The position numbers were made by a program, and so were the translations under genes. The notes beneath the pieces were generated by a model. That model ran no database searches, was not told where the DNA came from, and worked only from the letters and a program-made list of their open reading frames with translations. From Rickettsiales bacterium (GTDB taxonomy: Bacteria; Pseudomonadota; Alphaproteobacteria; Rickettsiales; UBA8987): a stretch of 64,000 nt of DNA. Position 1 is the first letter of the stretch, and every line of letters begins with the position of its first letter. The DNA lies in NCBI GenBank assembly GCA_020630095.1, contig JAHDCD010000004.1, positions 13,580 through 77,579 of the forward strand. Direction: 5' to 3'. Shown here piece after piece: positions 30,011-52,427 of this stretch.

Positions 30011-31522
30011 TTGGGATCTCATGAAAATTCTATATTTGAGAAAATGGACTTTAATTTACTTTTAAAAGGCTTGGTAAAAAAGGATTTTCCTACGTTTATG
30101 AGGAAGTGCTTTTCTACCGTTAACCCAGGGATTAGGTATCAGCATAATTGGCATTTAGATTTAATTGCCGAATATTTAGATGCCATAGATAAGGGGCAGA
30201 TTAAGCGCCTGATAATTAATATTCCACCACGTTATTTGAAATCATTCACTTGCAATGTGACCTACCCTGCTTGGGTGCTAGCGAATAATCCTACAAAGCG
30301 AGTTATATCTGTTTCGTATAGCCAAGCTCTTAGCTTAAAACATTCTATTGATTCGCGCGCGCTAGTTGAAAGTAAATGGTTTAAGCAATGTTTTAAAGAT
30401 TGTGCGCTGTTGGCGGATCAGAATGAAAAACATAAGTTTATGACCGAACAGCGCGGCTTCCGCTTTGCGACATCTGTTGGTGGCACGCTTACCGGCGAAG
30501 GTGGAGATTTAATTATTATAGATGACCCGCAGAACCCGATTAACATCCATAATCATGCGTATCGTGAGCATAGTATGGAATGGTTTTCCACTGTGCTTTC
30601 CAGCCGTTTAGATGATAAGAAAAACGGCGCAATGTTACTTGTTATGCAACGTTTGCATGAGGAGGATTTAACAGGAAAACTACTTAAACGCGGTGGCTGG
30701 GAGCATTTATCTATCTCCGCTCTGAATGAAAATGAAATTACTTATTATAGTTTTAAACAAATAAAAGCAAAAGAGTCGAATAAAGAATCTGTTATAGCTA
30801 TAACAGATTTTATTGATAATAATCTATTTAATTCAATAAGATCTGAATATTTAAGAAAGCCTAATTCTCCTTTACATTTTACACGTGAAGGATTTGATGA
30901 GTTGGATCAAATAAAGGCCGATTTGGGTGATCATGCATTTGCCGCGCAATATTTACAAAATCCTGCCCCCGCTAAAGATGGTATGGTTAGGCGCGATTGG
31001 CTATGTTATATATCTGAACCCTCTGAAGCGCCTGAGCAGATAATTTATTCATGGGATACGGCAATTAAAACTGCATCGCATAATGATTATACAGTTTGCA
31101 CGCGCTGGAAGACTTATAAGAATTTCTATTTCTTGGATAATTTATATCGCGGTAAATTGGAATACCCTGAACTGCTTAATTTAATTGATGAATTTAGTGC
31201 AGATGCTGATGTGGTATTGCTAGAGGATAAAGCCTCTGGGCAGTCTTTAATTCAAGACTTACGGAAGAATAGTAATCATCCTGTAATTGCCATTACCCCA
31301 CATAAAGATAAATTAACGCGCTTTGCGGCAACAACTCCGCTATTTGAGGCGAGTAAAGTAAAGATTAATCAGGATAGAGATTGGCGCATAGATTTAGAGC
31401 GTGAATTGCTAACATTTCCGAACTCAAAACACGATGACCAAGTAGATTCAATTAGCCAGTTTTTAAACTATATGAAAAATAGAAAGATAGAAATTTCTAA
31501 GCCCAACTTACGGAGGTTTTAA
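30011..31522 (+). CDS. phage terminase large subunit-like protein (orphan)
   Basis: Contains a Walker A-like IINIPPRYLKS, a Walker B DLIIIDDPQNP, and C-terminal RNaseH-like nuclease Asp motifs (YSWDTA, KHDDQVDS). The start may be the TTG at 30011 or the ATG at 30044. Confidence 0.8.
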   Translation: MGSHENSIFEKMDFNLLLKGLVKKDFPTFMRKCFSTVNPGIRYQHNWHLDLIAEYLDAIDKGQIKRLIINIPPRYLKSFTCNVTYPAWVLANNPTKRVISVSYSQALSLKHSIDSRALVESKWFKQCFKDCALLADQNEKHKFMTEQRGFRFATSVGGTLTGEGGDLIIIDDPQNPINIHNHAYREHSMEWFSTVLSSRLDDKKNGAMLLVMQRLHEEDLTGKLLKRGGWEHLSISALNENEITYYSFKQIKAKESNKESVIAITDFIDNNLFNSIRSEYLRKPNSPLHFTREGFDELDQIKADLGDHAFAAQYLQNPAPAKDGMVRRDWLCYISEPSEAPEQIIYSWDTAIKTASHNDYTVCTRWKTYKNFYFLDNLYRGKLEYPELLNLIDEFSADADVVLLEDKASGQSLIQDLRKNSNHPVIAITPHKDKLTRFAATTPLFEASKVKINQDRDWRIDLERELLTFPNSKHDDQVDSISQFLNYMKNRKIEISKPNLRRF

Positions 31523-35898: not shown

Positions 35899-36456
35899 AT
35901 GAATCTACTTAACCAGATATGGCTAGAAGCTTATGTTAAATCTGGTTGGATTAGGAGTTTTTATTTTTCTACCCTTATAATATTTGCGTTAACTTATTTA
36001 TTAAAAATTGATACAGTTAATGGCCTGTACTTCTGCCTAATAGTTATTAGCACTCTTAATTTCACCCAGATATTTCAAGATGATAAAGAAAATGGAGTGT
36101 TAGAACACAATATTATTAATTTAGGTACTTCCAGTACAGTTTTAGTTAAATTAACATCCTTTTTAGTAAGTAACTTTTTGCCAATTATTTTTATTAAACT
36201 AATTATTGATTTTGATAACTCTATTAGTTTTATTTTAATTTCTGCAATTATTGCAATGATTACTACACTTACGGCGGGGCTTTTAATTAAGCTTAATACA
36301 AGCTCTAACTTACCTTTAATGATTACATTCCCTGTAATTTTAAGCCTTATAGTATTTGCCATTAAAGGCTTGAGTGTAGCAATACTTGGATATCTATTAA
36401 TTATTTTGCCAATTTCTGTTTTCGTTACATCTTTTTCATTGCGTAATAATTTGTGA
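35899..36456 (+). CDS. polytopic membrane protein, possibly divergent heme exporter CcmB
   Basis: Has five to six TM helices. FQDDKENGVLEHNII resembles the CcmB F..D.EDGSL.LL segment. The call is weak. Confidence 0.4.
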   Translation: MNLLNQIWLEAYVKSGWIRSFYFSTLIIFALTYLLKIDTVNGLYFCLIVISTLNFTQIFQDDKENGVLEHNIINLGTSSTVLVKLTSFLVSNFLPIIFIKLIIDFDNSISFILISAIIAMITTLTAGLLIKLNTSSNLPLMITFPVILSLIVFAIKGLSVAILGYLLIILPISVFVTSFSLRNNL

Positions 36457-36497
36457 AAGGTTATAAATCTCCCATCTTTTTTATCTGATTTAAGTGT

Positions 36498-36573
36498 GAT
36501 CTCGTAGCTCAGTCGGTAGAGCAACTGACTTTTAATCAGTGGGTCGGGAGTTCGAGCCTCCCCGAGATCACCA
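36498..36573 (+). tRNA. tRNA-Lys (anticodon UUU)
   Basis: Cloverleaf read by hand. The acceptor GATCTCG pairs with CGAGATC. The D arm is GCTCAGTCGGTAGAGC, the anticodon loop is CTTTTAA, and the T arm is GGGAG-TTCGAGC-CTCCC. The discriminator is A and CCA is encoded. Confidence 0.93.
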
Positions 36574-36781
36574 ATCATTTCAATGACTTATCACGACCCA
36601 CTGCTCTAATTAACTTCCCAAAATCAACTCTAATAGGCACCGAATAGGCACGGTAAGTAAAAACTATGAGTATCATGGCACTAAAAGTAGCAACTCATGG
36701 TTTATTTTTTTCTATCTATATTTTAATGAATCTAACTAGTTTATCTTGTTTTTAAACTGGGTAATTATAACCTAATCAGCT

Positions 36782-37132
36782 ATGATAGACACTTACGAAA
36801 AAGCCTCTGCTCAAATGCTAGCTGCACTATGTGTCCGTAATACATTTCTTGAAGATTTGCATTCTGGAACCGTTCCAACTTCAAAAACTGGAGATTATTC
36901 AGACATTACTGTTAAAACTCCTTATGGTGAAATACCATGGAATGAAGTTTCACGTTTAAATGACGATGAAATGAAAATACTAATGAAAGAAGTTGTTAGT
37001 AAGCTTTACACCTTTTTTCAAAATCAAAATGATGATGATTTTATGGACGGCTTTGTAAATACAGCAATGAGATATATTGAGCATTGGGATGAGCCCAAAA
37101 TTGATAGTAGATTATTGTCTTTTAAGAATTAA
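36782..37132 (+). CDS. hypothetical protein (116 aa)
   Basis: ORF only. Confidence 0.4.
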   Translation: MIDTYEKASAQMLAALCVRNTFLEDLHSGTVPTSKTGDYSDITVKTPYGEIPWNEVSRLNDDEMKILMKEVVSKLYTFFQNQNDDDFMDGFVNTAMRYIEHWDEPKIDSRLLSFKN

Positions 37133-37224: not shown

Positions 37225-39885
37225 ATGAATCAAGCGCAAGTTGAAAAGAAGCTAAGTGAGTTAGTTAGGAATATAAATAAAGAAGATTTTATATATGATT
37301 TTCTTATGTGCTACGGCATACCCAAAGCTACCATTACCTTAATGAAGAAAGGTAGTAGAGATTTATCAAAGGTTGAGCATCAAAAAATACTAAAGAAGAA
37401 AATATTCTTTCATGAAGAACTTAATGGCGGCAGTTTATACGAGGCTATTGATAAGTTAAAAAATGATAGTTCAACATTCAAGCATGACCCTAATTTTATA
37501 ATAGTAACCGATTATAAAAACATTGTCGCAATTGATGTTAAAGCAAATGATACTTTAGACTCCGAAATAGAAAATCTTCATAAGAAGTATGATTTCTTTT
37601 TACCTTTAGCAGGTATGAAGAAATATAATGTTGCTGATGAAAATGAAGCTGATGTTAAAGCTGCAGAAAGAATGGCAAAGCTTTACGATCAGTTGCAGAG
37701 CGATAATGAGTTTGAAACAGAACAAGAAATTCATCACTTAAACATCTTCTTATCTCGCCTATTATTCTGCTTTTTCGCTGAAGATACTGATATGTTTGAA
37801 GGTGGAGATAACATCTTCACAAATTCAATTAAAAGCCATACCCAAGAAGATGGCTCAGATTTAAATGTATATTTAGATAGGTTATTTGAAGCACTTAACA
37901 CTACATCAAGAGATGATTACCCAGACCATTTTTCTAATTTTGATTATGTAAATGGTGGCTTATTTGCTGAAAATATTAAAGCCCCTCAATTCACAAGAAA
38001 ATCAAAAAGATTAATTGAAGATTTAGGCGAGCTTGATTGGTCTGAAATTAATCCTGATATTTTCGGTTCAATGATTCAGGCCGTTATCACCCCTGAACAT
38101 AGGGGTGGTTTGGGCATGCACTACACATCTGTGCCTAATATCATGAAGGTTATTGAGCCTTTATTCCTTGATGAGCTAAAGGAAGAATTTAAAAAGAATC
38201 ATAACAATGAAAAGAAACTAAATAAGCTACTTTTACGGTTAGAGAAAATTAAAATTTTCGACCCTGCCTGTGGTTCAGGTAATTTCTTAATTATTGCCTA
38301 TAAAGAACTTAGAGAGCTTGAGATTAATATATTCGTTAGAATTAACGAGCTTTCGCAATCAAGGCAGCTTCCGCTATCTCGAATTAAATTATCTCAATTT
38401 TACGGTATAGAGCTTGATGATTTTGCCCATGAAATAGCCATTTTATCACTATGGCTTTCTGAGCATCAGATGAATAAATTATTTAAAGAAAAGTTTGGCG
38501 ATGCTCCAAACCTTCTGCCTTTAAAGCCAAGCGGCAATATTGTTCATGGCAATGCAACCAGAATTGATTGGGAAGAAGTTTGCCCTAAAGAAAAAGATGA
38601 TGAAATCTATATTTTGGGCAACCCTCCTTATTTAGGCTCAAGTATGCAAGACGCTACCCAAAAAGAGGATATGGCAATTGTTTTTGATGGGTTTAAAAAT
38701 TATAAAAACTTAGATTACATAGCCTGCTGGTTTTATAAAGGTGCTGAATACATATCGGGCATCAATTCAAAATATGCTTTTGTATCAACTAATTCCATAT
38801 GTCAGGGGGAGCAAGTTGGACTCTTATGGCCTACAATTTTTGATAAAAATATTGAAATTAACTTTGCTTATACTTCATTTAAGTGGAGTAATAGTGCTAA
38901 AAGTAAGGCTAAAGTTATCTGCGTTATAGTTGGTCTAGCCAATAAGCAAGAGTTAAGTAAAAAAATATTTAATGAGATATCTATCTCTGAAGTTAAATCA
39001 ATAACTCCATACTTAACTTCAGGTAGATATGTTAAGCTAGAGAGAAGGTCAAAGAATATAAGCCCTTCATTACAGTCAATGGTTTGGGGGAATAAGGCTA
39101 CAGATGGAGGGAACTTTATATTAACCATTGATGAGGTTAATTCTTTAAAAAATGATTTTCCTGATAGTGTAAAATTTATAAAAAAATATATAGGTTCTGT
39201 AGAGTTTATAAGGGGAGTTGCGAGATGGTGCTTGTGGATAAGGGATAAAGATTTAGATAAAGCAAAAGAGATTCCTTTTATATTTGATAGAATTGAACGG
39301 GTCAAAAATGAAAGACTTTTGAGCAAAGCTGCGTCTACTAGGGCGTCAGCTAATAAGGCTCATAAGTTTATTCAAATACAGGGGGAACCTGATAAAGCCT
39401 TAATTATACCTAGCGTTTCTTCAATCAATAGAGATTACATTCCGATAGGTTTCGTTGAATCTGATACTGTTGTTAATGCTCAATGTTATGTTGTTTATAG
39501 ACCAGAATTTTATCTTTTTGGAGTTCTATCTTCTAAAATGCATATTACTTGGGTTAGAGCCGTAGCAGGTAAGTTGAAAAATGATTTTCGCTATTCTTCG
39601 GCTCTTTGTTACTCATCATTCCCAGTTCCCGAACTAACTGATGCTCAAAAGAAGATAATAGAAGACTGTGCGTTAAATGTTTTAGATGAGCGAGATAGGC
39701 ACCCAACAAAAACAATGGCAGAGCTTTACGACCCTGATAAAATGCCTGATGGCCTCCGCCAAGCCCACAAAATGTTAGATGAAGCGGTTGAAAAATGCTA
39801 TCGCAAAAAACCATTTGAATCAGACGAAGAACGCCTTGAACACCTGTTTAACCTATACGAAAAAATGACATCGGAGGAAGTGTAA
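37225..39885 (+). CDS. MmeI/PglX-family N6-adenine DNA methyltransferase (886 aa), no recognisable N-terminal PD-ExK nuclease motif
   Basis: Motif I is FDPACGSGNFLI and motif IV is GNPPYLGS. The family-typical segments LDWSEINPDIFGSMIQAV...GLGMHYTSVPNIMKVIEPLFLDEL and the C-terminal AELYDPDKMPDGLRQAHKMLDEAV are collinear with MmeI as I remember it. Confidence 0.85.
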   Translation: MNQAQVEKKLSELVRNINKEDFIYDFLMCYGIPKATITLMKKGSRDLSKVEHQKILKKKIFFHEELNGGSLYEAIDKLKNDSSTFKHDPNFIIVTDYKNIVAIDVKANDTLDSEIENLHKKYDFFLPLAGMKKYNVADENEADVKAAERMAKLYDQLQSDNEFETEQEIHHLNIFLSRLLFCFFAEDTDMFEGGDNIFTNSIKSHTQEDGSDLNVYLDRLFEALNTTSRDDYPDHFSNFDYVNGGLFAENIKAPQFTRKSKRLIEDLGELDWSEINPDIFGSMIQAVITPEHRGGLGMHYTSVPNIMKVIEPLFLDELKEEFKKNHNNEKKLNKLLLRLEKIKIFDPACGSGNFLIIAYKELRELEINIFVRINELSQSRQLPLSRIKLSQFYGIELDDFAHEIAILSLWLSEHQMNKLFKEKFGDAPNLLPLKPSGNIVHGNATRIDWEEVCPKEKDDEIYILGNPPYLGSSMQDATQKEDMAIVFDGFKNYKNLDYIACWFYKGAEYISGINSKYAFVSTNSICQGEQVGLLWPTIFDKNIEINFAYTSFKWSNSAKSKAKVICVIVGLANKQELSKKIFNEISISEVKSITPYLTSGRYVKLERRSKNISPSLQSMVWGNKATDGGNFILTIDEVNSLKNDFPDSVKFIKKYIGSVEFIRGVARWCLWIRDKDLDKAKEIPFIFDRIERVKNERLLSKAASTRASANKAHKFIQIQGEPDKALIIPSVSSINRDYIPIGFVESDTVVNAQCYVVYRPEFYLFGVLSSKMHITWVRAVAGKLKNDFRYSSALCYSSFPVPELTDAQKKIIEDCALNVLDERDRHPTKTMAELYDPDKMPDGLRQAHKMLDEAVEKCYRKKPFESDEERLEHLFNLYEKMTSEEV

Positions 39886-40419
39886 ATGAAGTGGAAGGAC
39901 TTACATACCTTAGGTTATGATCAATCAGGAAATATTAATATACCAGCCTTGCAGGATTCTTTACCTGATACGCCACTAGAAGTTCATGAAGATTTACTTT
40001 CTGGCTTTGGTAAAAACGATGATTTCCTTGAGTTATACGGTGATATTGACTTATCAAAAATTAAGTGGGAGAAGCATAAATTGAGAGCAAAAGAGCTTGT
40101 TGAATGTAGCTACTATAATAAATACTCCGACTGGCTTGAAGGTATGTCAGAGAGAATGGATAATTATAGCACTTTAGGATGGGATTGTTTACATCACACC
40201 GAAAAAGTTATGAATTATTGGAAAAACAATTCAACTTGGTATAGAAGACCCATCTTCTTTGATTTTGATCCTAGCAGTATATCTCAAGAAAAATGCCTTA
40301 GACTTTTAGAGGGGCATACTCGAATAGGTATTTTAAAGGGTGCATTAAAAAACAATATCTTAGACAAAAATAGTGAGCATGAAATATGGCTAGGTAAACT
40401 ACTGGGAGGACATAATTAA
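39886..40419 (+). CDS. small protein of unknown function (177 aa), possible ParB/Srx-like LLEGHTR motif
   Basis: The start abuts the methyltransferase stop (TAAATG). LRLLEGHTRIGIL faintly resembles the DGHHR motif of ParB-like domains. Confidence 0.45.
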   Translation: MKWKDLHTLGYDQSGNINIPALQDSLPDTPLEVHEDLLSGFGKNDDFLELYGDIDLSKIKWEKHKLRAKELVECSYYNKYSDWLEGMSERMDNYSTLGWDCLHHTEKVMNYWKNNSTWYRRPIFFDFDPSSISQEKCLRLLEGHTRIGILKGALKNNILDKNSEHEIWLGKLLGGHN

Positions 40420-41699
40420 TGACTAAATGGGAAGATAAACTGGGTAATTCAGGACTAATTGCAGAATTTGAAGAAATGGAGGGTTTGATACCTCAAGTTG
40501 AAGACATACTTGATGAAGATGACTTCACTGAGTTCCGAAGGTTTAAAAAGGTTTTTAAATATTGCAAAGAAATTATAGAACAAATAGACCCCGAATTGAT
40601 TCCTTCACAGTTTTATAGCTTATTTAATAAAAATAACGCTATTAACAACAGCTTAAGGCAATTTATATCTACAAAAAATTCATCAAATATAACAGCTGCT
40701 TCAAATGGCATTGATGTCTATTTAAATAATATTAATAATCTTGCTCCACTATTAAAGAGAACAGCAAATTTAAAGCCCTTAAAAGGTTTGGAAGAACTGA
40801 CTGATAAAGCTATTGAAAAACTCAAAGAAGAGGAAAAAAGTCTTAAAGAAAAGTTATCAAAGTTAGACTTGGAAATTAAAAATCGAAAAAAGCAAATCGA
40901 AACACTTGATCAATCTTTAGAGAGTAAAAAATCACAGATCGACAACTTTGTTAATGATTGGCAAGAAAAATTTGCTTCTTCACAAGAATCAAGATCAACT
41001 TCATTTAACGATGAGTTAAAAGATAAGGGTAAAAAATATGATGAATGGTATTCAAAAACTAGGGAAGAAGTTCAAAAGGAAATAGATAGTTTCTATAAAA
41101 GTAATTCTGAAAAATCAAAAGTTGAATACGATTCATTTAATGACAAAATTACAAAATTCATAGAAAGTGCTAATGGGAAGCATAATGAAATCATTAACTT
41201 ATACCAATTGGTTGCAAAGGATAGTGTCGCTGGTGGGCATGAATCTAATGCAGAAAAAGAAAAGAAGTCTGCTAATATTTGGAGATGGGGTGTAATTGGT
41301 TCGGTAGTTGTGATTGTAGTGTGGAATATGTTTTCGCATTTAGTTGGCTTTAGTATAACTAATGAGAAAAATGAATTAGATATCTATTCTCTTGTTAAAT
41401 CCTTAACAATTAATTTAGTAACATTTTTTGTAATTGGATATTCGTCAAAGCAATCGGCCATGCACAGAAAGAAAGAGCATGAGGCTAGAAAGTTTGCTCT
41501 TGAAACTCAGGCATTTGATCCATTTATCTCATCATTAGAGAAAACTGAACGAGATGAGCTTAAAGTTAAAATTACCGAACACCTTTTTAAGGCTAATGAT
41601 TCTGATAAAAATTTAGATATATCTAAAAATGATTTCGATATATCTGATAAAACTCTGACTAAAATTGTGGAATTAATAAAAGCATTTAAAGATAAATAA
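40419..41699 (+). CDS. coiled-coil protein with two C-proximal TM helices (426 aa)
   Basis: The start overlaps the upstream stop (TAATGA). Contains a long heptad-like region EEKSLKEKLSKLDLEIKNRKKQIETLDQSLESKKSQIDNF. The TM segments are IWRWGVIGSVVVIVVWNMFSHLV and LVKSLTINLVTFFVIGYS. Confidence 0.6.
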   Translation: MTKWEDKLGNSGLIAEFEEMEGLIPQVEDILDEDDFTEFRRFKKVFKYCKEIIEQIDPELIPSQFYSLFNKNNAINNSLRQFISTKNSSNITAASNGIDVYLNNINNLAPLLKRTANLKPLKGLEELTDKAIEKLKEEEKSLKEKLSKLDLEIKNRKKQIETLDQSLESKKSQIDNFVNDWQEKFASSQESRSTSFNDELKDKGKKYDEWYSKTREEVQKEIDSFYKSNSEKSKVEYDSFNDKITKFIESANGKHNEIINLYQLVAKDSVAGGHESNAEKEKKSANIWRWGVIGSVVVIVVWNMFSHLVGFSITNEKNELDIYSLVKSLTINLVTFFVIGYSSKQSAMHRKKEHEARKFALETQAFDPFISSLEKTERDELKVKITEHLFKANDSDKNLDISKNDFDISDKTLTKIVELIKAFKDK

Positions 41700-41703
41700 T
41701 AAT

Positions 41704-43626
41704 ATGCCAAATATAATAGATTTAAAATATGAGCAAACTGGTGCTAGTACGAAACATAATAAAATGGGTATGCGAGATATGCAGGCTCAGGCTTATGAAA
41801 AACGTGCAGCACAATATCTGCTAATCAAAGCTCCACCTGCATCAGGTAAGTCTAGGGCTTTAATGTTTTTGGGGTTGGATAAGCTTCATAATCAAGGCTT
41901 AAAGAAGGTGATAGTTGCTGTGCCTGAGAGGTCTATTGGCTCTTCATTTGCACCTACTGATTTATCTAGTTTTGGCTTCTTTACTGATTGGAACCCAAGC
42001 CCTGAATATAATTTATGTACTGCAGGAGATTCAACGAGCAAAGTTAAAAAATTCGTTCGTTTCCTTAATTCTGACGAGCAAATTCTTATATGCACACATG
42101 CAACGCTAAGATTTGCTTATGAGCAGCTTGAAGAGGAGCAGTTTAATGATTGCGTACTTGCAATTGATGAGTTCCATCATGTTTCATCTGATAATGAGTC
42201 TAGTCGCTTAGGTAATTTATTAGGTAATATTATGGCTAAATCTAATGCTCATGTTGTGGCAATGACAGGCTCATATTTTAGAGGCGATGGCGTTGCTGTT
42301 TTATCTCCTGATGATGAGGCTAATTTTGATAAGGTAACTTATAATTATTACGAACAGTTAAACGGCTATAGCTATCTTAAAACGCTTGGTATTGGCTATC
42401 ATTTTTATCAAGGGAAATATACATCTGCAATAAGTGAAGTGCTAGATACTGATAAGAAAACTATTATTCATATTCCAAGCCCTAATGCAGGTGAATCTAC
42501 TAAAGATAAATATGCGGAGGTTGATACTATAATAGGAATTATTGGAGAGGTTGAATCTGAAGATTTTGATACTGGTGTAATTAATGTTAAGCGTAAATCT
42601 GATGGTAAAATTATAAAGGTTGCTAATTTAGTTCATGAAGAAGGTAGAGAGCGAGTTCAAGAGTTTCTTCGTAATGTTAATTCTGTTGATGATATTGATA
42701 TTATAATTGCATTAGGAATGGCTAAGGAGGGCTTTGACTGGCCATATTGTGAGCATGCACTTACAGTAGGATATAGAGGCTCTTTAACAGAGGTTATTCA
42801 AATTATAGGTCGCTGTACAAGAGATTCGGATAATAAGAGCCATGCTCAATTTACTAATCTTATTATTGAACCAGATGCAGCTAGCGATGAAGTTAATGTT
42901 GCAGTTAATAATATGCTTAAAGCTATTACCTGCTCACTTTTAATGGAGCAGATTATGGCTCCAGTATTTAAGTTTAAGCCTAAATTATCCGATGATGAAA
43001 AATCAAAAGGTAATAATGTTCTTATCAAAGGTTTAAAAGTTCCGAGCTCTAAAAAAGTTAAAGATATTTTAGAGTCTGATTTAAATGATTTAAAAGCTAA
43101 AATTCTTCAAGATAAACAAGTTGAGGAATCTATATCGGGCGCTATTGAGCCTGAAATTATGAATAAGGTAGTTATTCCAAGAATTATTAGGGAGAAATAC
43201 CCAGACTTAGATAAAGAGCAGGTTGAAGAAATTAGGCAGCACGTGGTTGCTGATTCAGTTCTTAAAGGTGCGAAAATTGATAATAGTGGGGATCAAAGAT
43301 TCTTAATAATGTCTAGTAAGTTTATCAATATTGATGAGCTTGAAATTGATTTAATTGATAAGATAAACCCATTCCAAGATGCTTATGAAATTATGTCTAA
43401 GAATGTTGATAAGAAAACTCTAAAAGCAATCAAGGATCATATAGATTCTAATAGGTCTAGCATTACTGAGGAGGAAGCCCTTTATCTATGGCAAAATAAG
43501 ACCATTCAAACATTCGTAGAAAATAATGGCAGTGAACCTGACTTAAATGCTAACAATCCATTAGAAGTAAGAATGGCTGAGGCATTGGCTTATTTGCGAA
43601 ATATGAAGCGTCAGTTAGCAAGTTAG
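41704..43626 (+). CDS. SF2 DExH-box helicase (ResIII-like, 640 aa)
   Basis: Contains Walker A KAPPASGKSR, DExH box AIDEFHH, motif III MTGSYFRG and motif VI QIIGRCTRD. Confidence 0.85.
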   Translation: MPNIIDLKYEQTGASTKHNKMGMRDMQAQAYEKRAAQYLLIKAPPASGKSRALMFLGLDKLHNQGLKKVIVAVPERSIGSSFAPTDLSSFGFFTDWNPSPEYNLCTAGDSTSKVKKFVRFLNSDEQILICTHATLRFAYEQLEEEQFNDCVLAIDEFHHVSSDNESSRLGNLLGNIMAKSNAHVVAMTGSYFRGDGVAVLSPDDEANFDKVTYNYYEQLNGYSYLKTLGIGYHFYQGKYTSAISEVLDTDKKTIIHIPSPNAGESTKDKYAEVDTIIGIIGEVESEDFDTGVINVKRKSDGKIIKVANLVHEEGRERVQEFLRNVNSVDDIDIIIALGMAKEGFDWPYCEHALTVGYRGSLTEVIQIIGRCTRDSDNKSHAQFTNLIIEPDAASDEVNVAVNNMLKAITCSLLMEQIMAPVFKFKPKLSDDEKSKGNNVLIKGLKVPSSKKVKDILESDLNDLKAKILQDKQVEESISGAIEPEIMNKVVIPRIIREKYPDLDKEQVEEIRQHVVADSVLKGAKIDNSGDQRFLIMSSKFINIDELEIDLIDKINPFQDAYEIMSKNVDKKTLKAIKDHIDSNRSSITEEEALYLWQNKTIQTFVENNGSEPDLNANNPLEVRMAEALAYLRNMKRQLAS

Positions 43627-43629
43627 ATT

Positions 43630-44778
43630 ATGGATAAAGATGAATTATTAGATATTTTAGGAGATGACTCTTTAGGCTTACTTAATGTTAAGCCTAAAGC
43701 AAAAGCCGTTACTGCTGATGAAAGGCTTGTAGAAACTCTTGAGCAGATTAATGCCTTCTATGATGAAAATGGAAAGGAGCCAGAGTTAACTAGCGATTTA
43801 ACAGAAAGAAAGTTATTTAATCATTTAAAATCCATTAGAGAAAATGAACAGTTTATTGAGTCTTTATTGCCTCTGGATAAATTTTCTTTGCTAAAAAAAA
43901 CTAAAAAGAAATCCACTAATGAACTTTTAGATGATGATGAATTTGGATTGTTAGACTCAGCTTCGGATAGTATCTTCACTTTAAAGCATATTAAAAAAGT
44001 TGATAAAACTAGCCCAGATTACATAGCCCGCAGAAAACCCTGTAAAGACTTCACGCTATTCAATGAAAAGTTTATTAAATGTCATGAAGATATACAATCT
44101 GGCAACAGGAAGATACTAGATTTTAAAAGAGGTGAAGATATGCGTGTAGGCCATTTCTTCGTTTTGAAGGGAATGCTAGTTTATATAGATGAAATCAATA
44201 ATGTTAGAAAAGATGACCATGGAAAATTAGATGCCAGATTAAGAGCTATATTTGAAAATGGAACTGAATCAGACTTGCTTTTAAGGTCTTTAGCTAAAGA
44301 ATTATATAAAGATGGTAGAAGAGTTAGTGAAATTAAAGGCTCTGGTCTTGAAGAGTTAACTTCAGCTAATGAAGAAGAATTAACAGGTTATATCTATGTA
44401 CTTAAATCTTTAAGTAAGAAACCACAAATACAAGATTGCAAAAATTTATATAAAATAGGTTTTTGCACAACCTCAGTTGAAGATAGAATTAAGGGAGCAG
44501 AAACTGATCCGACTTACCTTATGGCACCAGTTGCAATAGTTGAAAAGGCAATTTGTTATGGTGCTAAAGCCAAGCAATTTGAAAGCTTGATTCACAGGTT
44601 TTTTGACTCTGCTAGGCTTGATATAGAAGTAACAGAAAATGATGGATACAAATATAAGCCTAACGAATGGTTTAATGTCCCTCTATCCGAAATTAATAAG
44701 GCTATCGACTTGTTAGATAATGGACAGATTATTAATTATAAATTCAATTCCAGTAAGGATTGTATAGAACTAATTTAA
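43630..44778 (+). CDS. T5orf172/Mug113 (GIY-YIG superfamily) domain protein (382 aa)
   Basis: The C-terminal GYIYVLKSLS...LYKIGFCTTSVEDRIKG...LIHRFFDSARL...NEWFNVPLSEINKAIDLL matches the T5orf172 pattern. Confidence 0.75.
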   Translation: MDKDELLDILGDDSLGLLNVKPKAKAVTADERLVETLEQINAFYDENGKEPELTSDLTERKLFNHLKSIRENEQFIESLLPLDKFSLLKKTKKKSTNELLDDDEFGLLDSASDSIFTLKHIKKVDKTSPDYIARRKPCKDFTLFNEKFIKCHEDIQSGNRKILDFKRGEDMRVGHFFVLKGMLVYIDEINNVRKDDHGKLDARLRAIFENGTESDLLLRSLAKELYKDGRRVSEIKGSGLEELTSANEEELTGYIYVLKSLSKKPQIQDCKNLYKIGFCTTSVEDRIKGAETDPTYLMAPVAIVEKAICYGAKAKQFESLIHRFFDSARLDIEVTENDGYKYKPNEWFNVPLSEINKAIDLLDNGQIINYKFNSSKDCIELI

Positions 44779-44970: not shown

Positions 44971-45321
44971 ATGAATAATGTGGTATTAGTTAAAGATTAC
45001 TATCAGGATCATAGGTTTGATAATGAAGTGGTCATAAATCTTATAAATTCTCTAAAAAATCAATTGGAGAAATATATATTAACAGCAAACAAGGAGCTGA
45101 GGTCTAACAAGGATAAGGATTTGATAAATTCTTACTCAATATTTAGATTAGTAGCCAAAAAGGCAGTCTTTAACTGTAATAAGATAGCTCAAGCACCTAA
45201 TAGTTTTACAGCATGGCAGATAGTAAACGAAATTGAGATAATTTTGTCTGCAATGCCAGATTACTTTAAAGAGGAATTTGAAGATAAATATTATGAAGAG
45301 CTTTCAGCTTTAAGATACTAG
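44971..45321 (+). CDS. hypothetical protein (116 aa) with a strong Shine-Dalgarno sequence (AAGGAGGTGAcgtATG)
   Basis: ORF with a canonical RBS. No motif recognised. Confidence 0.5.
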   Translation: MNNVVLVKDYYQDHRFDNEVVINLINSLKNQLEKYILTANKELRSNKDKDLINSYSIFRLVAKKAVFNCNKIAQAPNSFTAWQIVNEIEIILSAMPDYFKEEFEDKYYEELSALRY

Positions 45322-45322
45322 A

Positions 45323-45610
45323 TTACATATCAAAGAAATAATTGGCATCTTTGTTAAAGATTTTACATAAGGCTCTTATCTCGACATCTCTGACAGCCCT
45401 TATACCGTTCTCTATTTTTGAGATACCTTTTTGATTGATGATAATATTAAAATCAATTTCTAAGGCTGCTGATAAATCTACTTGCATCATGCCTTTTTCT
45501 TTTCTGGCCTCGGCAACCTTTTTACCTATTGTATTTTCTTTGATTTTTGAAGCTGTCATGAAACGCAACTTATTGTTTAATTTCATATTATGCCTGATAA
45601 ATACTTGCAT
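45323..45610 (-). CDS. XRE-family HTH repressor (phage cI/Cro-like)
   Basis: IGKKVAEARKEKGMMQVDLSAAL...ISKIENG is an HTH_XRE pattern. Confidence 0.75.
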   Translation of the reverse strand: MQVFIRHNMKLNNKLRFMTASKIKENTIGKKVAEARKEKGMMQVDLSAALEIDFNIIINQKGISKIENGIRAVRDVEIRALCKIFNKDANYFFDM

Positions 45611-46734: not shown

Positions 46735-47163
46735 CTATGATAAAAACATATTGGCTTCAGCGGCTCTACGCCTGATTAAGCCTCTATTTGGCTTGCCTTG
46801 AACTTTGTGCCAACGAAGCATCTCGGCAGGCACTTTATCTTTCTTATTTTCGTTCAGCCTTTTAAGTAAGGTGCTACGCCTAAACGCACCGCTTCCTATG
46901 TTATAAACTAGTGAAACTAGGCTTGAATATTCAGCATCTGAAAGCTCAATTTTGACATTCTTCTTAACTGCATCTTCAGCTTTTTGAATATCTTGGCGCA
47001 AAAGTTCTTCAGCTTTATCACGGCCAATAACTTCGTAACCTTCGCCCTTCTTAATAAGGTGGCCATATCCAATAGTAGGCTTACCACCTACATCTAAATA
47101 TTTGTGACTTCGGAAACCTTCAAACTTTTTAATAAGCTCTATGCCATTATTAGTTATTTGCAT
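46735..47163 (-). CDS. endolysin, GH24 (T4-type) lysozyme
   Basis: IELIKKFEGFRSHKYLDVGGKPTIGYGH matches the E...D...T catalytic pattern. Confidence 0.88.
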   Translation of the reverse strand: MQITNNGIELIKKFEGFRSHKYLDVGGKPTIGYGHLIKKGEGYEVIGRDKAEELLRQDIQKAEDAVKKNVKIELSDAEYSSLVSLVYNIGSGAFRRSTLLKRLNENKKDKVPAEMLRWHKVQGKPNRGLIRRRAAEANMFLS

Positions 47164-47389
47164 CTAAAGCCTCCAGTTTTTCAATACGATATTCAACTTG
47201 ATTAAGGCGTTGCTCTAGCACTACCGCCTTAATTTTATGTTCATCAACGCTATCAAGTTGCTTTTCGATATGGTTAAGTTTTTCATCGAGGCGAGTTATC
47301 TTTTCGCCATAAGATGTTAGCGAATAGCCCACCCATGAAAGCAGAGCTATAATTACGGCGCCAACTACCGCTTGTATGAATTTTTCCAT
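47150..47389 (-). CDS. small membrane-anchored coiled-coil protein (79 aa)
   Basis: Has the N-terminal TM helix AVVGAVIIALLSWVGY followed by a coiled coil. It is part of the lysis cassette. Confidence 0.5.
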   Translation of the reverse strand: MEKFIQAVVGAVIIALLSWVGYSLTSYGEKITRLDEKLNHIEKQLDSVDEHKIKAVVLEQRLNQVEYRIEKLEALDANN

Positions 47390-47402
47390 TTTAATTTTAG
47401 AT

Positions 47403-48254
47403 TTAAGAAGATGAGATAGCTTGCCGTGTATCAGTTCTAAGCCAGTTAGAACCGTCAGAAAATGCCGTTATCGGCAGTCCATTTGCTCCGTTAGATACGA
47501 ATATTATTGAACCATAATAAGTTGAAGCATTTGGTACATTTGAAACATTATAAGATTGCCCTTTAGCAGGATTATTGAAATAGCAATCTTTCTTGAAATC
47601 TATATTGCCGTTATCTTTATTAACCTTGAAAGACTCAAACCAGTTTGAGCCATCAGATACTTTTAAGGTAAAGCTATTGTCAGCAATTAAGCCAAATTCT
47701 GCAAAGCCAGTAAAAGCCTTTTGGAATATGAAGGAAGCAGTGTTAGCATCAGCATTTTTATTGAGCTTAACTCGAATATCTGTGCCATTATGATTAAGTA
47801 ATACTGCATCTGAAGCTACAGCAAGTTTATTGATACTATCCGCACTAGTATTGATACCAAGCATAGGTAAAGTGCTGATTGTGCCACCGCCACCCGAACC
47901 ACCGGCTTCAACCCAGCTTGAGCCGTCATAGGCATATAAAGCATCTTCATCATTTACCCATATTACAAAACCTTCATTGGGAATAATAAAACGCCATGCC
48001 TGATAATACCAAGCAATCTGCCCTTCTTTGCCAGTCCAGTCGCCAGTTGCAGAAGTTCCTACAATATACATATCGCCATTGTTAGGCGATGATGGTGGTG
48101 AAGATAAGTCCTTATCCTTAACGCCAGAATTAAGCAGTGCATCAATTACAATAAGAGCTTCATTAACCGTTACTTCTTTTTGGCTTTGACTCTGTTCGAG
48201 TAAGTCGAATCCTAAATTAGTTACTTGTGCCATGTGCAGGATAACCTCTGCCAA
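47403..48254 (-). CDS. DUF2793-type tail fibre/receptor-binding-like protein
   Basis: The N-terminal EQSQSQKEVTVNEALIVIDALL motif, and the position right after the g15-like gene, match GTA-type clusters. Confidence 0.65.
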   Translation of the reverse strand: MAEVILHMAQVTNLGFDLLEQSQSQKEVTVNEALIVIDALLNSGVKDKDLSSPPSSPNNGDMYIVGTSATGDWTGKEGQIAWYYQAWRFIIPNEGFVIWVNDEDALYAYDGSSWVEAGGSGGGGTISTLPMLGINTSADSINKLAVASDAVLLNHNGTDIRVKLNKNADANTASFIFQKAFTGFAEFGLIADNSFTLKVSDGSNWFESFKVNKDNGNIDFKKDCYFNNPAKGQSYNVSNVPNASTYYGSIIFVSNGANGLPITAFSDGSNWLRTDTRQAISSS

Positions 48255-51200
48255 CTATTGCTGATAGCTGGTAGATATTGAATGATATATTGTTTTGAGC
48301 CGTGCCGAAATCAGCAATTTGCATTGCCTCTGTATAAGTAAAATTACTAGTCGTTGCTTGATACGAAGCTATTTCGTTACCATTATCTAGTATTGTAATT
48401 TCGTATTTTTCAGATTCTTCAGAAAGTGGAATATCAACAAAGTCTTTCCAATCTCCGCCAAGCCTCGTGCGCCTTAGCCATGAAATCTCAAAATCATTAG
48501 CTGATTTATTAACCTCAATATTTACAGGCGAATAAGGCTTTAGTGTTTTTGCAGCATAAGTAAATGGTTGCTCTTGCGTTTCTACTATATTATCGCCTGA
48601 AGTAACGCCCTTGTAATGACGCTCTGAATTAAACAGAGAACTAACTACATCAATTTTAGAGATAGAGTTATCAAGCAGGATAAACCTATCGCCTATATCA
48701 TGATTAGCTATTTCGTGTTCTGTGCCATATCTGCCGCGCAGGAAGTTAGATAATCTGTAATATTTATCGCCAATTAAGCTTGCCGTTTGAAATTGCACTA
48801 ACTCGTTATTTATTAAAGCTAAGTTAGAACCATTAAGCATTTGAGCCTTGGTTACAGATGATAATTCACCTTCAATTAGCTGAACTTCAACTTCAGAATC
48901 AATATCTGTAATATTGCCTTCATGTATGGTTGAAAGAGTATTTAAGCAAGCACCTATTACTGAATAATTATCTGTGCTTGATATTGAGCCAAAATTATTG
49001 CCACCGCCAACTCCGCCATCATCAGAGCGATAAGTTATAGCACCTTGCCAGTTTTCACCTAGTGGAGCTACGGCAATTCTTAGTTTGCCTAAATTATCAA
49101 CATCTTCTTCTAATGCAGGAATATCAATAAGCTCAAGCTTAGTATCTGGTAAGATATAACCGATATCTTCATTCGATTCTGATAAACCAACTGGAATATA
49201 GAAATCATACGAGCTTATATCTTCAGCTACGCCTTGAACTTCCATTAAGCCGTTTCGTTCAATATTAATCTTATTGATGCGGATTTGATGGGTAACACCT
49301 TGAACCTCAACATCAATAATATCTGTAGGTTCTAAATAAGCATATTTAGGCGGAATAATTAGGCTATATGATGTTCTTCTTATCCAAGAGTTATAAAGCG
49401 TAATATCGGCTATATTACGCCCTTGCTGGTCATTTAGAACGATTGGTAAGTTCAAGCCTACTTTTTCAATAGCATTAACAGTATGACGCTGTGAACGCTG
49501 AACAGATGGATCGTAATTAGCAATTCGACTAATATATGAGATATTAACCTCTTTCGGTAATTCCAACTCTTGTGTGCGAGTTATCTGTAAAACATCTCGA
49601 ATATTGCCATCTTTATTGAGCGGAACAAGCTCATCTTGAGCTATGTTAGCAACCGCATCACTTCCACGCCTTTTGAATTTTAAGATACCGTCAGATTCGA
49701 CCATATCAAAAAAGTATGCTGCTTGCAGATGCTCTATAACCTGCCTAACGGTGCTTATTTGCATCCTGATATAGCCATCAACAATATCAGTAAGCTCAGA
49801 TACATCAAAGTCTGAATCTAACAGCCCTACTTTGCATAAATGATGAGCAATTATTGCCCCTAATGTTGAATTGCCTAATTTGCCTTGAACCCAATGGCCG
49901 CTTGAATATAGCCTAGCATCAGCCCATACGCTCTCAAAATCTGGCCATAAAGGGTAAGGTCTAGCATCCCATGTCCATAAAAAAGCTCTAGGTGTTAAAC
50001 CAGATTCCGCTTGATTGCGTTCTGTTAAATAATCAATAGTAGCTTCTAAGGCTTCTCTTTGAGCTACATAATCTATTCTGCCTTTTGAAGCTCTAGGGTA
50101 ATGGCTTTCTGATGAGGTAGGATCATAAAATACATTTGGTTGATTTGCAGCCCCATCTAAAGAAGGAAAGCCAAACTCCGTAAACCATACAGGCTTTGAT
50201 TTTGGAACCCATGCGGTATTATTGCCATCAGGGTTTTGATGTGTGTTAGACCACCAATATTCAAGATTTTTCCATGCGTATTTATTATCTGAATAATTGG
50301 TTTTGCCAGTACGATTTGCTGAATCTAAGTAATAATAGTCCCAACCTTCGCCAGATTCCCAGCCTTGCTTGATTTTATCATAAGTTATTTGAGCTTGTGG
50401 TAAGTCATCAGTTAATGGGAAATAAGCATCTATACCGATAAAATCTATATCAGGTGAAGCCCAAAGCGGATCCATATTGAACCAACCATTAACTGAATGA
50501 TACTCGCTCCAGTCCGCAGCGTAAGTTACTGCAACAGAACTACCAACAGCAGATTTTACAAGTGAAGCTAGATTAACGAATTGGTCAACAACGGGGTAAA
50601 CTCCACTAGTTTCAGTAAAATTGGTTAAGCCTCGAAGTTCTGAACCAATTACGATAGCAGAAATTAGGTCTTTCAAATTTACCGAATCGACCTGAAGATT
50701 AGCGTAATGTAATATGTAATCATTGTAGCCATTAACTTTTGTGAAGAAATTATTAGCATCAGCGGTGCTTTGCGGTGTTATTCTGCCTCGCCATGGCTTA
50801 GGGTTAGGCTCTGTTTCATCAACAAATATCATGGGGTAAAGCATGATATTTAAGCCTCTATTCTTAAGCTCTTGGCATATCTCAATTATGCTTCTGTCTG
50901 ATGGTGTACCGCCATAGGTAATTGAGCCATCAGGCAGAGTAAGTACCATTTGAGCGGTATGTCTATTCAGCCCTGCAACTTCCCATTCATAAGGTTCAGT
51001 TGATGTAGTATCTGCATTATATTCAACTTTAGGGATTACATCGCAAGCTCCTGCATCTGTTGATGTGCCGAACCAAGTTACCACTAGCGCCACCCATTCT
51101 AGGTTTGGCAGAGTTTCTTGGAGCTTATCTAGCGAAGGTAAAACATTCGCCACACCCTCAAAATTGTGCATGTTTATAGACTCTTTCTTTCCATTAGGAT

Positions 51201-51954
51201 TGAAAGTGCCATAGGCATAATATCCTGTGATTTTTTGATATACAGATGTTGAATATACGAACTCGCCCGCCCCAGGTATTAAAACTATGTCCGTTACCTT
51301 ATCTTCTAATGCAGGTGTGAAGCGGATATTACGCTTAACTTCAAAAGTAAAATTTGGAATACGGTTACCGAATTTAAGTAATGGCAAATCTTCAATTACA
51401 ATATAAGCAAGCCCTCTATAAGCTGGAACATTACCAACACCTTCAAAAGATTCTATTATCGGGTCAGGCAATTGCTCTTCAGTGCCAAGATAGATATTAT
51501 ATTTACCTTCAGCACCATTTACGAAGTTATTATCAATAACTTCAGTATCAGCCCAAGTTTTGACAATTTCTGTTATCTCGCCTTCGCATATACCAATGGC
51601 AAGTGTAGCGTAATACTCATAAGTATTGGTTGTTTGTGAAGTAGATGGCCCACCGCCTTTACCTTGCTGTTGAGTATTAGTTTGAGATTTCTTAACCTCT
51701 TTGATCTCTTGAGCCCATATAATATTGCCGGCTAACCTTGCTGTGCCGAATATTTCAGGGATGGACTTGCCATAATTTGAGGTTTGTATTCTTAAGTCAG
51801 CTAGTCTAGGCCCTTCTACCGTTGGTTGCTCAATAGTATCTGCACCAAAGGTTCTTGATAATATAGTGCCAATTCCTGCACCTAATTTAGCACCGGTTGG
51901 ACCGCCGATAATGAAGCCACCTACAGCTCCTATTACTGGTAATGCGGAAGTCAT
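48217..51954 (-). CDS. host-specificity/central tail protein, RcGTA g15-like (1245 aa)
   Basis: Size, position after the NlpC/P60 gene, and a Gly-rich N-terminus. A central glycoside-hydrolase/TIM-barrel-like region is typical of GTA g15 homologues (from memory). Confidence 0.7.
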   Translation of the reverse strand: MTSALPVIGAVGGFIIGGPTGAKLGAGIGTILSRTFGADTIEQPTVEGPRLADLRIQTSNYGKSIPEIFGTARLAGNIIWAQEIKEVKKSQTNTQQQGKGGGPSTSQTTNTYEYYATLAIGICEGEITEIVKTWADTEVIDNNFVNGAEGKYNIYLGTEEQLPDPIIESFEGVGNVPAYRGLAYIVIEDLPLLKFGNRIPNFTFEVKRNIRFTPALEDKVTDIVLIPGAGEFVYSTSVYQKITGYYAYGTFNPNGKKESINMHNFEGVANVLPSLDKLQETLPNLEWVALVVTWFGTSTDAGACDVIPKVEYNADTTSTEPYEWEVAGLNRHTAQMVLTLPDGSITYGGTPSDRSIIEICQELKNRGLNIMLYPMIFVDETEPNPKPWRGRITPQSTADANNFFTKVNGYNDYILHYANLQVDSVNLKDLISAIVIGSELRGLTNFTETSGVYPVVDQFVNLASLVKSAVGSSVAVTYAADWSEYHSVNGWFNMDPLWASPDIDFIGIDAYFPLTDDLPQAQITYDKIKQGWESGEGWDYYYLDSANRTGKTNYSDNKYAWKNLEYWWSNTHQNPDGNNTAWVPKSKPVWFTEFGFPSLDGAANQPNVFYDPTSSESHYPRASKGRIDYVAQREALEATIDYLTERNQAESGLTPRAFLWTWDARPYPLWPDFESVWADARLYSSGHWVQGKLGNSTLGAIIAHHLCKVGLLDSDFDVSELTDIVDGYIRMQISTVRQVIEHLQAAYFFDMVESDGILKFKRRGSDAVANIAQDELVPLNKDGNIRDVLQITRTQELELPKEVNISYISRIANYDPSVQRSQRHTVNAIEKVGLNLPIVLNDQQGRNIADITLYNSWIRRTSYSLIIPPKYAYLEPTDIIDVEVQGVTHQIRINKINIERNGLMEVQGVAEDISSYDFYIPVGLSESNEDIGYILPDTKLELIDIPALEEDVDNLGKLRIAVAPLGENWQGAITYRSDDGGVGGGNNFGSISSTDNYSVIGACLNTLSTIHEGNITDIDSEVEVQLIEGELSSVTKAQMLNGSNLALINNELVQFQTASLIGDKYYRLSNFLRGRYGTEHEIANHDIGDRFILLDNSISKIDVVSSLFNSERHYKGVTSGDNIVETQEQPFTYAAKTLKPYSPVNIEVNKSANDFEISWLRRTRLGGDWKDFVDIPLSEESEKYEITILDNGNEIASYQATTSNFTYTEAMQIADFGTAQNNISFNIYQLSAIVGRGYPAHGTSN

Positions 51955-52427
51955 TTTATTCTATAAATTGCTACTATTCGCTTACGCCAATTTTCGTTAA
52001 TGCGGTGTTCAACAACTTTTCCAGATGATAGATAGCAATGAATGAGGGTAAGTTGTCCCTCTATTTCGCCAATAAATGCTGTATGTTGAGGGTTGTTTGC
52101 AAAGCGAAGTAATGCTATATCGCCAAGTTTAATATTTTGTTTAGGTATTTCTTTTAAGTAATTGTTAAGTTTAGCTTTTAATCTTTTGCCGTCAGGTAAG
52201 TTTGAGTAATTGATTTCATCATATTCAGATAACAACTTTCCGTTAGAGTCTTTTATTTGAAGTTCATTTAATACGCCAATTATAAGCCCTAAACAATCCA
52301 CACCGCCATTATGATTAGAGGATTTTTTCAGTCGCCCTTGATGATGATATTTCGTGCCTAGCCAAGTTCTAGCTTGAGTTACTATTTTATCAGATAATGG
52401 CATCTGTGGTTGGTATGTGAGGTTCAC
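51951..52427 (-). CDS. NlpC/P60 family phage cell-wall peptidase (RcGTA g14-like)
   Basis: Has GGVDCLGLI (catalytic Cys) and a downstream His (PQHTAFIG). The position is conserved. Confidence 0.75.
   Translation of the reverse strand: MNLTYQPQMPLSDKIVTQARTWLGTKYHHQGRLKKSSNHNGGVDCLGLIIGVLNELQIKDSNGKLLSEYDEINYSNLPDGKRLKAKLNNYLKEIPKQNIKLGDIALLRFANNPQHTAFIGEIEGQLTLIHCYLSSGKVVEHRINENWRKRIVAIYRIK

Follow-up and report, generated by a model that had tools for sequence, protein, structure and literature searches.

The genes p177 and p426 are located between the methyltransferase gene and the helicase gene of a five-gene operon in a 64,000-nucleotide (nt) stretch of the Rickettsiales contig JAHDCD010000004.1. 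The stretch as a whole is referred to as the window, positions are those on the stretch, and all genes of the operon are on the + strand. The first gene (37225..39885) was assigned with Pfam and PADLOC to the MmeI family and encodes a YeeA/DnmA-like N6-adenine DNA methyltransferase of 886 amino acids (aa) with a fused target-recognition domain. It is followed by p177 (39886..40419), encoding a standalone protein of 177 aa that belongs to PHROG 8867 and has a probable divergent ParB/Srx-like fold, and by p426 (40419..41699), encoding a protein of 426 aa with a predicted N-terminal helical domain, coiled coil, transmembrane (TM) hairpin and cytoplasmic tail. The remaining genes, both identified with Pfam, encode a YeeB-like superfamily 2 (DEAD/ResIII) helicase of 640 aa (41704..43626) and a YeeC-like T5orf172/GIY-YIG-type protein of 382 aa (43630..44778). 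Comparison of this arrangement with related loci makes it likely that the slot between the YeeA and YeeB genes contains p177 and p426 as a stack of two independent cargo genes, which are expressed from the host operon.

The packing of the five genes is tight. The stop codon TAA of the methyltransferase gene is immediately followed by the ATG of p177 at 39886, with GGAGGAAG upstream of that ATG, and the stop codon of p177 shares one base with the start codon of p426 in the sequence TAATG at 40417-40421, with GGAGGA upstream. Ribosome-binding sites of the GGAGGA type are thus located 5' of both p177 and p426. The stop codon of p426 lies 4 nt ahead of the helicase ATG at 41704. An earlier sequence-only reading of the window had described open reading frames (ORFs) of 177 and 426 aa as inserts in a methyltransferase-helicase operon tightly coupled to their neighbours, a description with which these positions, lengths and junctions agree. 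The sequence motifs that it had quoted are likewise present, LRLLEGHTRIGIL at residues 138-150 of p177 and KQSAMHRKKEHEARK at residues 344-358 of p426. Both are real genes and not chance ORFs: p177 because a HMMER search returned 190 cluster representatives (E<=1e-3) and the AlphaFold2 (AF2) model has a predicted local distance difference test score (pLDDT) of 94, and p426 because full-length homologues are found, such as a protein encoded on a plasmid of V. crassostreae (E 2e-38).

The deduced sequence of the 886-aa methyltransferase revealed all of the Pfam domains MmeI_N, MmeI_hel, MmeI_Mtase (1e-111), MmeI_TRD and MmeI_C, and the protein matched the PADLOC type IIG model over its full length. 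The catalytic residues D70, E80 and K82 of MmeI are not kept in an alignment to 5hr4, a result consistent with the YeeA group. The sequence D96-x7-D104-x-K106 was weighed as the MmeI nuclease motif; its counterpart in the alignment is MmeI 115-125 and not D70/E80/K82. This D-x7-D-x-K arrangement (aa 96-106 of the window protein, positions 37510-37542) is shared among YeeA-like methyltransferases, D96 being found in 51, D104 in 57 and K106 in 48 of 58 sequences comprised of the window protein and 57 homologues. The 640-aa helicase has thousands of homologues in many phyla with 60-68% identity, some of which carry the name YeeB. The 382-aa protein matched Pfam T5orf172 (4e-12) and MUG113 (1.5e-11), and a T5orf172 gene is present 3' of the helicase gene in those related loci whose contig reaches past it. 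According to Morgan et al. (PMC2731913), MmeI homologues without PD-ExK (YeeA) "invariably" have a helicase (YeeB) and a GIY-YIG-like protein (YeeC) as neighbours, and Fernandez et al. (PMC9973331) reported that the synteny of dnmA-yeeB-yeeC is conserved. Judged by domain content and synteny, the three-gene core of the window is a known DnmA(YeeA)-YeeB-YeeC-type restriction-like cassette. Its three genes match those of the B. subtilis and V. crassostreae cassettes in identity, order and orientation, and the window operon differs from these cassettes by the two extra genes between the methyltransferase and helicase genes. A passage of PMC9973331 that cites Piel et al. states that the V. crassostreae homologue of the cassette affects phage sensitivity.

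Out of at least 596 matching loci, the 80 best were sampled around helicase homologues, the genes of these loci were called as ORFs in this analysis, and the five window proteins were mapped onto them. The sample comprises 79 loci other than the window itself, 69 of which contain both the methyltransferase and the helicase. The two genes abut with a gap of 150 nt or less in 41 of the 69 loci (2-148 nt with a median of 44 nt in the 39 gaps summarised), while 27 of the 69 carry 0.5-5.8 kb of additional co-oriented DNA with ORFs at exactly this junction. No insert was found at the junction of the helicase and T5orf172 genes in any sampled locus. The remaining one of the 69 loci, L014 (4618-7262), was rejected as a cargo locus since it contains a frameshift-split YeeA-like methyltransferase, the C-terminal part of which appears as a separate ORF of 180 aa.

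The inserts are unrelated from locus to locus and are typical conflict genes. RhuM occupies the slot in 9 loci and a Schlafen AlbA_2 protein with HATPase_c_4 in 6, and the further cargo includes PDDEXK_3, Fic/DOC with or without a helix-turn-helix (HTH) domain, KAP NTPase, Abi_C, PIN, DUF2513, DUF488 and an HTH protein with an M78 peptidase. A complete Hachiman pair (HamA and an 862-aa helicase) together with an AlbA_2 protein was observed between the YeeA-like and YeeB-like genes in L048:3617-8738. Cargo differs between loci with closely related helicases: L072 has RhuM and L077 has none, yet their helicases are 98% identical; L063 has AlbA_2 where L072 has RhuM, yet the helicases are 91% identical; and L039, L055 and L046 have three different cargoes with helicases 85-87% identical. 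The ORF at L045:8114-8809 is chimeric, with the first 56 aa of the p426 type (hmmsearch domain E 8.6e-13) in frame with a 5'-truncated Fic/HTH protein, and looks like a recombination scar of cargo replacement in the slot. Fragments from the 5' end of RhuM genes precede other cargo at L059:3153-3446 (AlbA_2), L023:8077-8364 (an ORF of 119 aa) and L079:2655-3176 (PIN), which suggests that new cargo arrives inside or behind older cargo. On this comparative evidence the methyltransferase-helicase junction appears to serve as a slot in which cargo is readily exchanged by recombination, comparable with that between hsdS and hsdR in type I restriction-modification (R-M) operons. No description of a variable cargo slot at the YeeA-YeeB junction was found in the literature; PMC9973331 mentions only "uncharacterized" neighbours.

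When all ORFs of the 79 other YeeABC-type loci were searched with profiles of the two cargo proteins, p177 was found in none and p426 in two, L007 and L026. The profile searches did not find p177 and p426 together in any locus outside of the window. Locus L007 is the closest relative of the window core, with 67% identity of the helicase and 58% of the methyltransferase, and contains p426 alone directly after the methyltransferase gene, which suggests that p177 was added later.

These distributions bear on the proposal of the sequence-only reading that p177 and p426 are probably functional subunits rather than passengers. In such an arrangement p426 could anchor the system to the membrane or form its effector arm, and p177 could be a ParB-like DNA or NTP module, both working only with the core. 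The tight translational coupling to both neighbours is in favour of this proposal, as is the finding that in 5 independent R-M-type operons a p426 homologue either directly precedes the translocase gene or is separated from it by a single cargo gene. However, nothing of the core is missing from the 41 loci that are without either gene, and it is just as conserved there, the slot holds many unrelated genes, and that other cargo is packed as tightly as p177 and p426. Both families also occur outside of any R-M operon, and the methyltransferases that accompany p426 are of two unrelated types, MmeI-like and HsdM/S. Since related operons usually are without both genes while the core is unchanged, an outcome set beforehand as decisive against subunits, the step from translational coupling to subunits fails. 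Synteny therefore largely refutes the integral-subunit explanation, which is considered very improbable.

The arrangement is of a kind already described for other systems. In a survey of Hma, BREX, DISARM and type I R-M systems, an approach termed "guilt-by-embedding", the embedded genes were reported to be often independent defences (bioRxiv 10.1101/2024.01.29.577857); a type I operon also contains TgvAB as an embedded defence (PMC11411939), and PrrC and other toxins are nested in R-M operons (PMC3710099). The window genes share the properties of such embedded systems (for example PrrC, TgvAB and BrxU) in that they are nested and co-oriented, vary among close host systems and have homologues outside of the host system. 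The cargo types RhuM, Fic, Abi, nucleases and whole systems are also common to the surveyed hosts and the YeeABC slot, whereas the YeeABC-type host is absent from the systems surveyed. The sequence-only reading had considered a membrane protein in a methylation-based system unusual, a view that the published embedded defence genes (bioRxiv 10.1101/2024.01.29.577857) contradict.

A word-index search revealed no relatives of p177 and was superseded by the exhaustive HMMER search, the 190 cluster representatives of which are mostly standalone proteins of approximately 170 aa. The match of the protein to PHROG 8867 has E 3.9e-23 and covers profile positions 32-170 of 174; five other family members match this PHROG as well. 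In an alignment of 66 sequences (A2), residues W61, W112, W118, R146 and L150 are invariant and P30, Y51, T117, P122, L140, E142, G143, H144 and H165 are near-invariant, with E142, G143 and H144 conserved in at least 90% of the members. The family consensus is ...TWxxPPI...LHLVEGHTRxGxLxGL...SxHxxWxG, and the motif E142-G143-H144-T145-R146 is encoded at 40309..40323. The AF2 model built from this alignment has a predicted TM-score (pTM) of 0.88 and contains strands at residues 123-125, 139-142 and 164-172 and a helix at residues 144-155, the motif being situated between strand 139-142 and the helix. The C-terminal half is therefore ordered as a strand with PPI, a strand ending in E-G-H-T-R, a helix and a strand, the same order of elements as that surrounding GERR of ParB and GCHR of sulfiredoxin, the sequences of which were verified against the entries in the Protein Data Bank (PDB). 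This element order is that of the ParB/Srx superfamily, which includes the ParB N-domain, sulfiredoxin, DndB, the N-terminal DUF262 of GmrSD and ParB-like nucleases; p177 differs from the superfamily by an additional N-terminal helical region of approximately 55 residues and by the family-specific invariant residues W61, W112 and W118. Based on the model, EGHTR of p177 is probably the [DE]GxxR signature of a ParB/Srx-like fold, and membership of this fold family would be consistent with a role in binding nucleotides, hydrolysing nucleotides or cutting nucleic acid.

Pfam scans of the 66 members identified no ParB-type or ParBc-clan family, the p177 profile had no match among PDB sequences, and relatives of 260-360 aa with C-terminal extensions contained no Pfam domain that would point to a function. 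Weak matches of p177-family members to DUF1281 (E 0.0012, below the cut-off) and CUE were rejected.

Homologues of p177 are present on plasmids of Streptomyces and Rhodococcus, and homologues adjoin an Mrr-type enzyme, an nSTAND ATPase, toxin-antitoxin (TA) pairs, RecT or a terminase. A homologue in the Gifsy-like Salmonella prophage ZC-S1_prp (L098:4908-5432) has the position of a lambdoid moron, with antiterminator Q on one side and the lysis genes on the other, and another on a V. parahaemolyticus plasmid (L099:5001-5504) belongs to a series of small cassettes that are co-oriented as in an integron and include TA, GNAT, NUDIX and PLD genes. No p426 neighbour was found in ten contexts of p177 homologues, and the diversity of these contexts thus points to p177 as an independently mobile single gene. 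The same contexts bear on the idea that p177 and p426 form one two-gene module, either a toxin-antitoxin or a sensor-effector pair, inserted as a unit. The coding sequences overlap by one base and have no neighbours besides one another and the core genes, as would be expected of such a module; however, beside the ten p177 contexts without p426, the p426 homologues of L007, L026, L006 and the V. crassostreae plasmid have no p177 neighbour, and L007 has p426 by itself directly after the methyltransferase gene. Insertion as a single module is accordingly thought highly unlikely.

Relatives of p426 are sparse. The word-index search returned four distant ones, the homologues in L007 and L026 are 28-29% identical (alignment A1), the homologue on the V. 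crassostreae plasmid aligns over the full length, and two matches were obtained on Geobacillus/Parageobacillus plasmids. Alignment A1 revealed a conserved N-terminal helical domain (aa 1-110, 40419..40748) with MSRW..., R41, K44 and the motif IDPELIP, followed by a helical middle part of variable length, an A-N-x-W-R-W motif and two hydrophobic helices. The coiled-coil-like region, at approximately aa 119-260 (40773..41198), corresponds to continuous helices in the AF2 model. The predicted TM hairpin (41292..41438) is comprised of TM1 at aa 292-310, a loop of 11 residues and TM2 at aa 322-340, for which the Kyte-Doolittle means over 19 residues are 1.94 and 1.63 respectively; two hydrophobic windows above 1.4 are present in 5 of 6 full-length members of the family. 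Basic residues are found beside both cytoplasmic ends of the hairpin, which fits an N-in/C-in topology. The tail of the family has the conserved sequence K-x-S-x-x-H-R-x-x-E-x-x-x-R...DPF, the first part of which is the consensus of the juxtamembrane segment KQSAMHRKKEHEARK at 41448..41492. The description of p426 in the sequence-only reading as a coiled coil followed by a TM hairpin and a basic tail was thereby borne out.

A 480-aa protein encoded at L103:3119-4561 (Vibrio phage PQ189357) also contains the hairpin and tail (aa 278-394 of p426; 30% identity over 124 aa, E 3e-13), and its gene immediately follows, in the same orientation, the CI repressor gene of a 186/P2-like Vibrio prophage. 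The juxtamembrane consensus is also kept in this protein, which shares only the TM-hairpin/C-terminal module with p426, the N-terminal 290 aa being different. Since the module is joined to different N-terminal parts, p426 appears to be modular, with a membrane module and exchangeable N-termini. Exclusion genes located beside the prophage repressor are established for lambda rexAB. The 480-aa protein resembles RexB-like exclusion proteins of lambda in being encoded directly 3' of the CI repressor gene and co-oriented with it, whereas it has no sequence relation to RexA or RexB, and the likening of its position to a prophage exclusion-gene site is only an analogy.

The sequence-only reading had also likened p426 to SLATT effectors with two TM helices. 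The analogy of layout holds, since the two have in common a closely spaced TM pair, a conserved polar or basic cytoplasmic helix and a context of conflict genes, but it does not extend to a profile match: no SLATT model matched p426 at E<=1, and none was among the 25 of 68 matched families listed for seven members of the family. No other relevant Pfam model was found among the families listed for these members at E<=1, and a PDB search with p426 returned nothing beyond coiled-coil noise. In contrast to SLATT loci, which belong to nucleotide-signalling defence systems, those of p426 are without partners that generate or sense a nucleotide signal (SMODS, SLOG, CARF-like or cyclase), the neighbours being R-M genes, RhuM, DUF4268 and the CI repressor gene, and typical SLATT proteins do not have the N-terminal domain and coiled coil of p426, together approximately 280 aa.

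The p426 family is present in three YeeABC loci (the window, L007 and L026) and also at the hsdS-hsdR slot of two type I R-M operons. In L006 the order is the C-terminus of HsdS, the p426-family protein P0004, RhuM and an HSDR_N/SWI2_SNF2 protein; on plasmid p1 of V. crassostreae it is hsdM, hsdS, the p426 homologue, DUF4268 and hsdR. Standalone members are found in L002-L005 and on the Parageobacillus plasmid. The occurrence of 5 of about 9 known contexts inside R-M-type operons, beside a helicase or HsdR gene, would fit a guard function similar to that of PrrC in the EcoprrI type I locus, with p426 of autonomous origin yet wired to translocating R-M complexes. The N-terminal domain of p426 would dock on the intact restriction complex, which would hold p426 inactive until a phage anti-restriction protein disabled the complex, whereupon the 2-TM module would permeabilise the membrane and depolarise the cell. 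Such a function would be in accord with a conserved N-terminal domain distinct from an effector-like membrane module, and with the precedent of PrrC and of embedded HEPN, RhuM and Fic toxins (PMC3710099). However, the methyltransferase and specificity subunits of the host systems are unrelated to one another, and standalone members exist, so that the guard function is judged improbable. The best inference for p426 is a membrane-acting role in abortive infection or exclusion.

A further explanation is that p177 and p426 are selfish or neutral passengers without a role in defence, such as addiction genes, phage morons of other function or decaying cargo. Consistent with this explanation, p177 belongs to an uncharacterised phage family found in prophages and plasmids, many of the genes embedded in other systems are still without a function (bioRxiv 10.1101/2024.01.29.577857), and the cargo scars described above show that decay occurs in the slot. 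On the other hand, neither ORF is disrupted, each keeps the conserved motifs of its family and has a good ribosome-binding site, and the other identifiable cargo of the slot is overwhelmingly of toxin or defence type. A passenger status of this kind is regarded as unlikely, if less so than the other alternatives.

Several results weigh against an interpretation of p177 and p426 as defence cargo with the folds proposed. Neither protein had a credible match among the PADLOC defence models including HEC/PDC (PADLOC-DB v2), and some homologues of p177 and p426 are located in neighbourhoods without obvious defence genes (L002, L095, L096 and L100). A match of p426 to LeoA in PADLOC (3e-7) was rejected as an artefact of coiled-coil composition, since relatives match LmuB, ZorA tails and JetC and the matches in NCBIfam and PDB are to SMC, apolipoprotein and keratin; the coiled-coil region as a whole gave only matches of the composition type (SMC, ASRP, the ZorA tail, LmuB, JetC and apolipoprotein). 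The AF2 model of p426, built from an alignment of 5 sequences, is all-helical with very long helices at residues 119-192 and 198-313 and has a low pLDDT of 54, only the N-terminal domain reaching approximately 60-88. Because the model is poor, the hairpin was assigned from hydropathy and conservation only. For p177, a Foldseek search of BFVD returned the ParB/Srx superfamily in 15 of the 24 top matches with informative names, though these are weak (E 1e-3 to 0.2), and a Foldseek search of the PDB returned nothing relevant. Alignment with hhalign placed the motifs in register at non-significant levels (P 0.043 versus four ParB N-domains and P 0.36 versus Srx). The resemblance to ParB/Srx domains seen in the sequence-only reading is thus favoured by the order of elements and, weakly, by the top BFVD matches, and not by any sequence-profile match to the ParBc clan. 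Lastly, dnmA-yeeB-yeeC of B. subtilis gave no phage protection (PMC9973331), indicating that activity of the host system is not universal.

The operon is part of an island that begins directly 3' of a tRNA-Lys(UUU) gene (36498..36573, +) identified with ARAGORN, a possible integration site. The 3' end of the tRNA-Lys gene was not found repeated elsewhere in the window, as would be expected at a boundary of the island, and neither an integrase nor a tRNA repeat marking the ends of the island was found. An ORF of 167 aa at 36075-36578 (-), with a translation that includes GEARTPDPLIKSQLLYRLSYE, is antisense to the tRNA gene, a usual spurious frame and no gene; it also overlaps a membrane-protein ORF of 185 aa on the + strand. 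Two ORFs of 116 aa flank the operon (36782-37132 and 44971-45321) and have no match in Pfam, NCBIfam, PADLOC or PHROGs, and a divergent HTH_3 protein of 95 aa is encoded at 45323-45610, just 3' of the operon. Genes like those of gene-transfer agents (GTA) are located at 46735-52427 (-) and 30011-31522 (+). The set includes a 1245-aa GTA_TIM/Phage-tail_3/Rcc01698_C protein, DUF2793, NlpC/P60, phage lysozyme and a large terminase. The resemblance of these genes to RcGTA suggests an alphaproteobacterium as their source. The defence island is situated between tRNA-Lys and the GTA-like cluster.

Taken with the distribution of the two families, the following mechanism is proposed. The genes p177 and p426 would be separate, horizontally mobile accessory genes that were stacked in the slot, are not core subunits, and borrow the transcription of the operon to which they are translationally coupled; they may be auxiliary conflict or anti-phage genes. 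The p426 protein would be inserted in the inner membrane through an N-in/C-in hairpin and oligomerise through the coiled coil, acting as an autonomous membrane effector of the abortive-infection or exclusion type with the N-terminal domain sensing infection. The p177 protein would be a small ParB/Srx-fold protein with a pocket formed by E-G-H-T-R that binds or hydrolyses nucleotide or cuts nucleic acid. Confidence in these biochemical roles is much lower than that in the status of the two genes as independent cargo. A bolder proposal is that p426 is a new membrane-acting effector of abortive infection guarding translocating restriction systems of the type I and YeeABC kinds in the manner of PrrC, that p177 is a new single-gene, nucleotide-dependent defence or counter-defence protein of the ParB/Srx fold, and that the YeeA-YeeB junction is a rich and unmined source of defence genes in hundreds of species; in this combined form it is considered doubtful at best, with small likelihood.

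Embedded accessory genes are an established phenomenon, to which the window adds a new host system and two uncharacterised families. New are the single, well-defined cargo slot of the YeeABC-type host, the two cargo families covered by no current set of defence models, and the recurrence of p426 across two different R-M types. The results correct the reading of the operon, which is a three-gene core with two passengers and not a machine of five subunits. The widespread DnmA-YeeB-YeeC cassette, matched in at least 596 species genomes, has a dedicated slot that behaves like that between hsdS and hsdR and to which guilt-by-embedding can be extended. The p177 and p426 families are thereby candidates for anti-phage defence with functions suggested by context and predicted structure: the one a modular coiled-coil/2-TM protein, p426, which occurs in five R-M-type operons and in part beside a prophage repressor, and the other a small, confidently folded ParB/Srx-like protein, p177, which occurs in phages, plasmids and cassette arrays.

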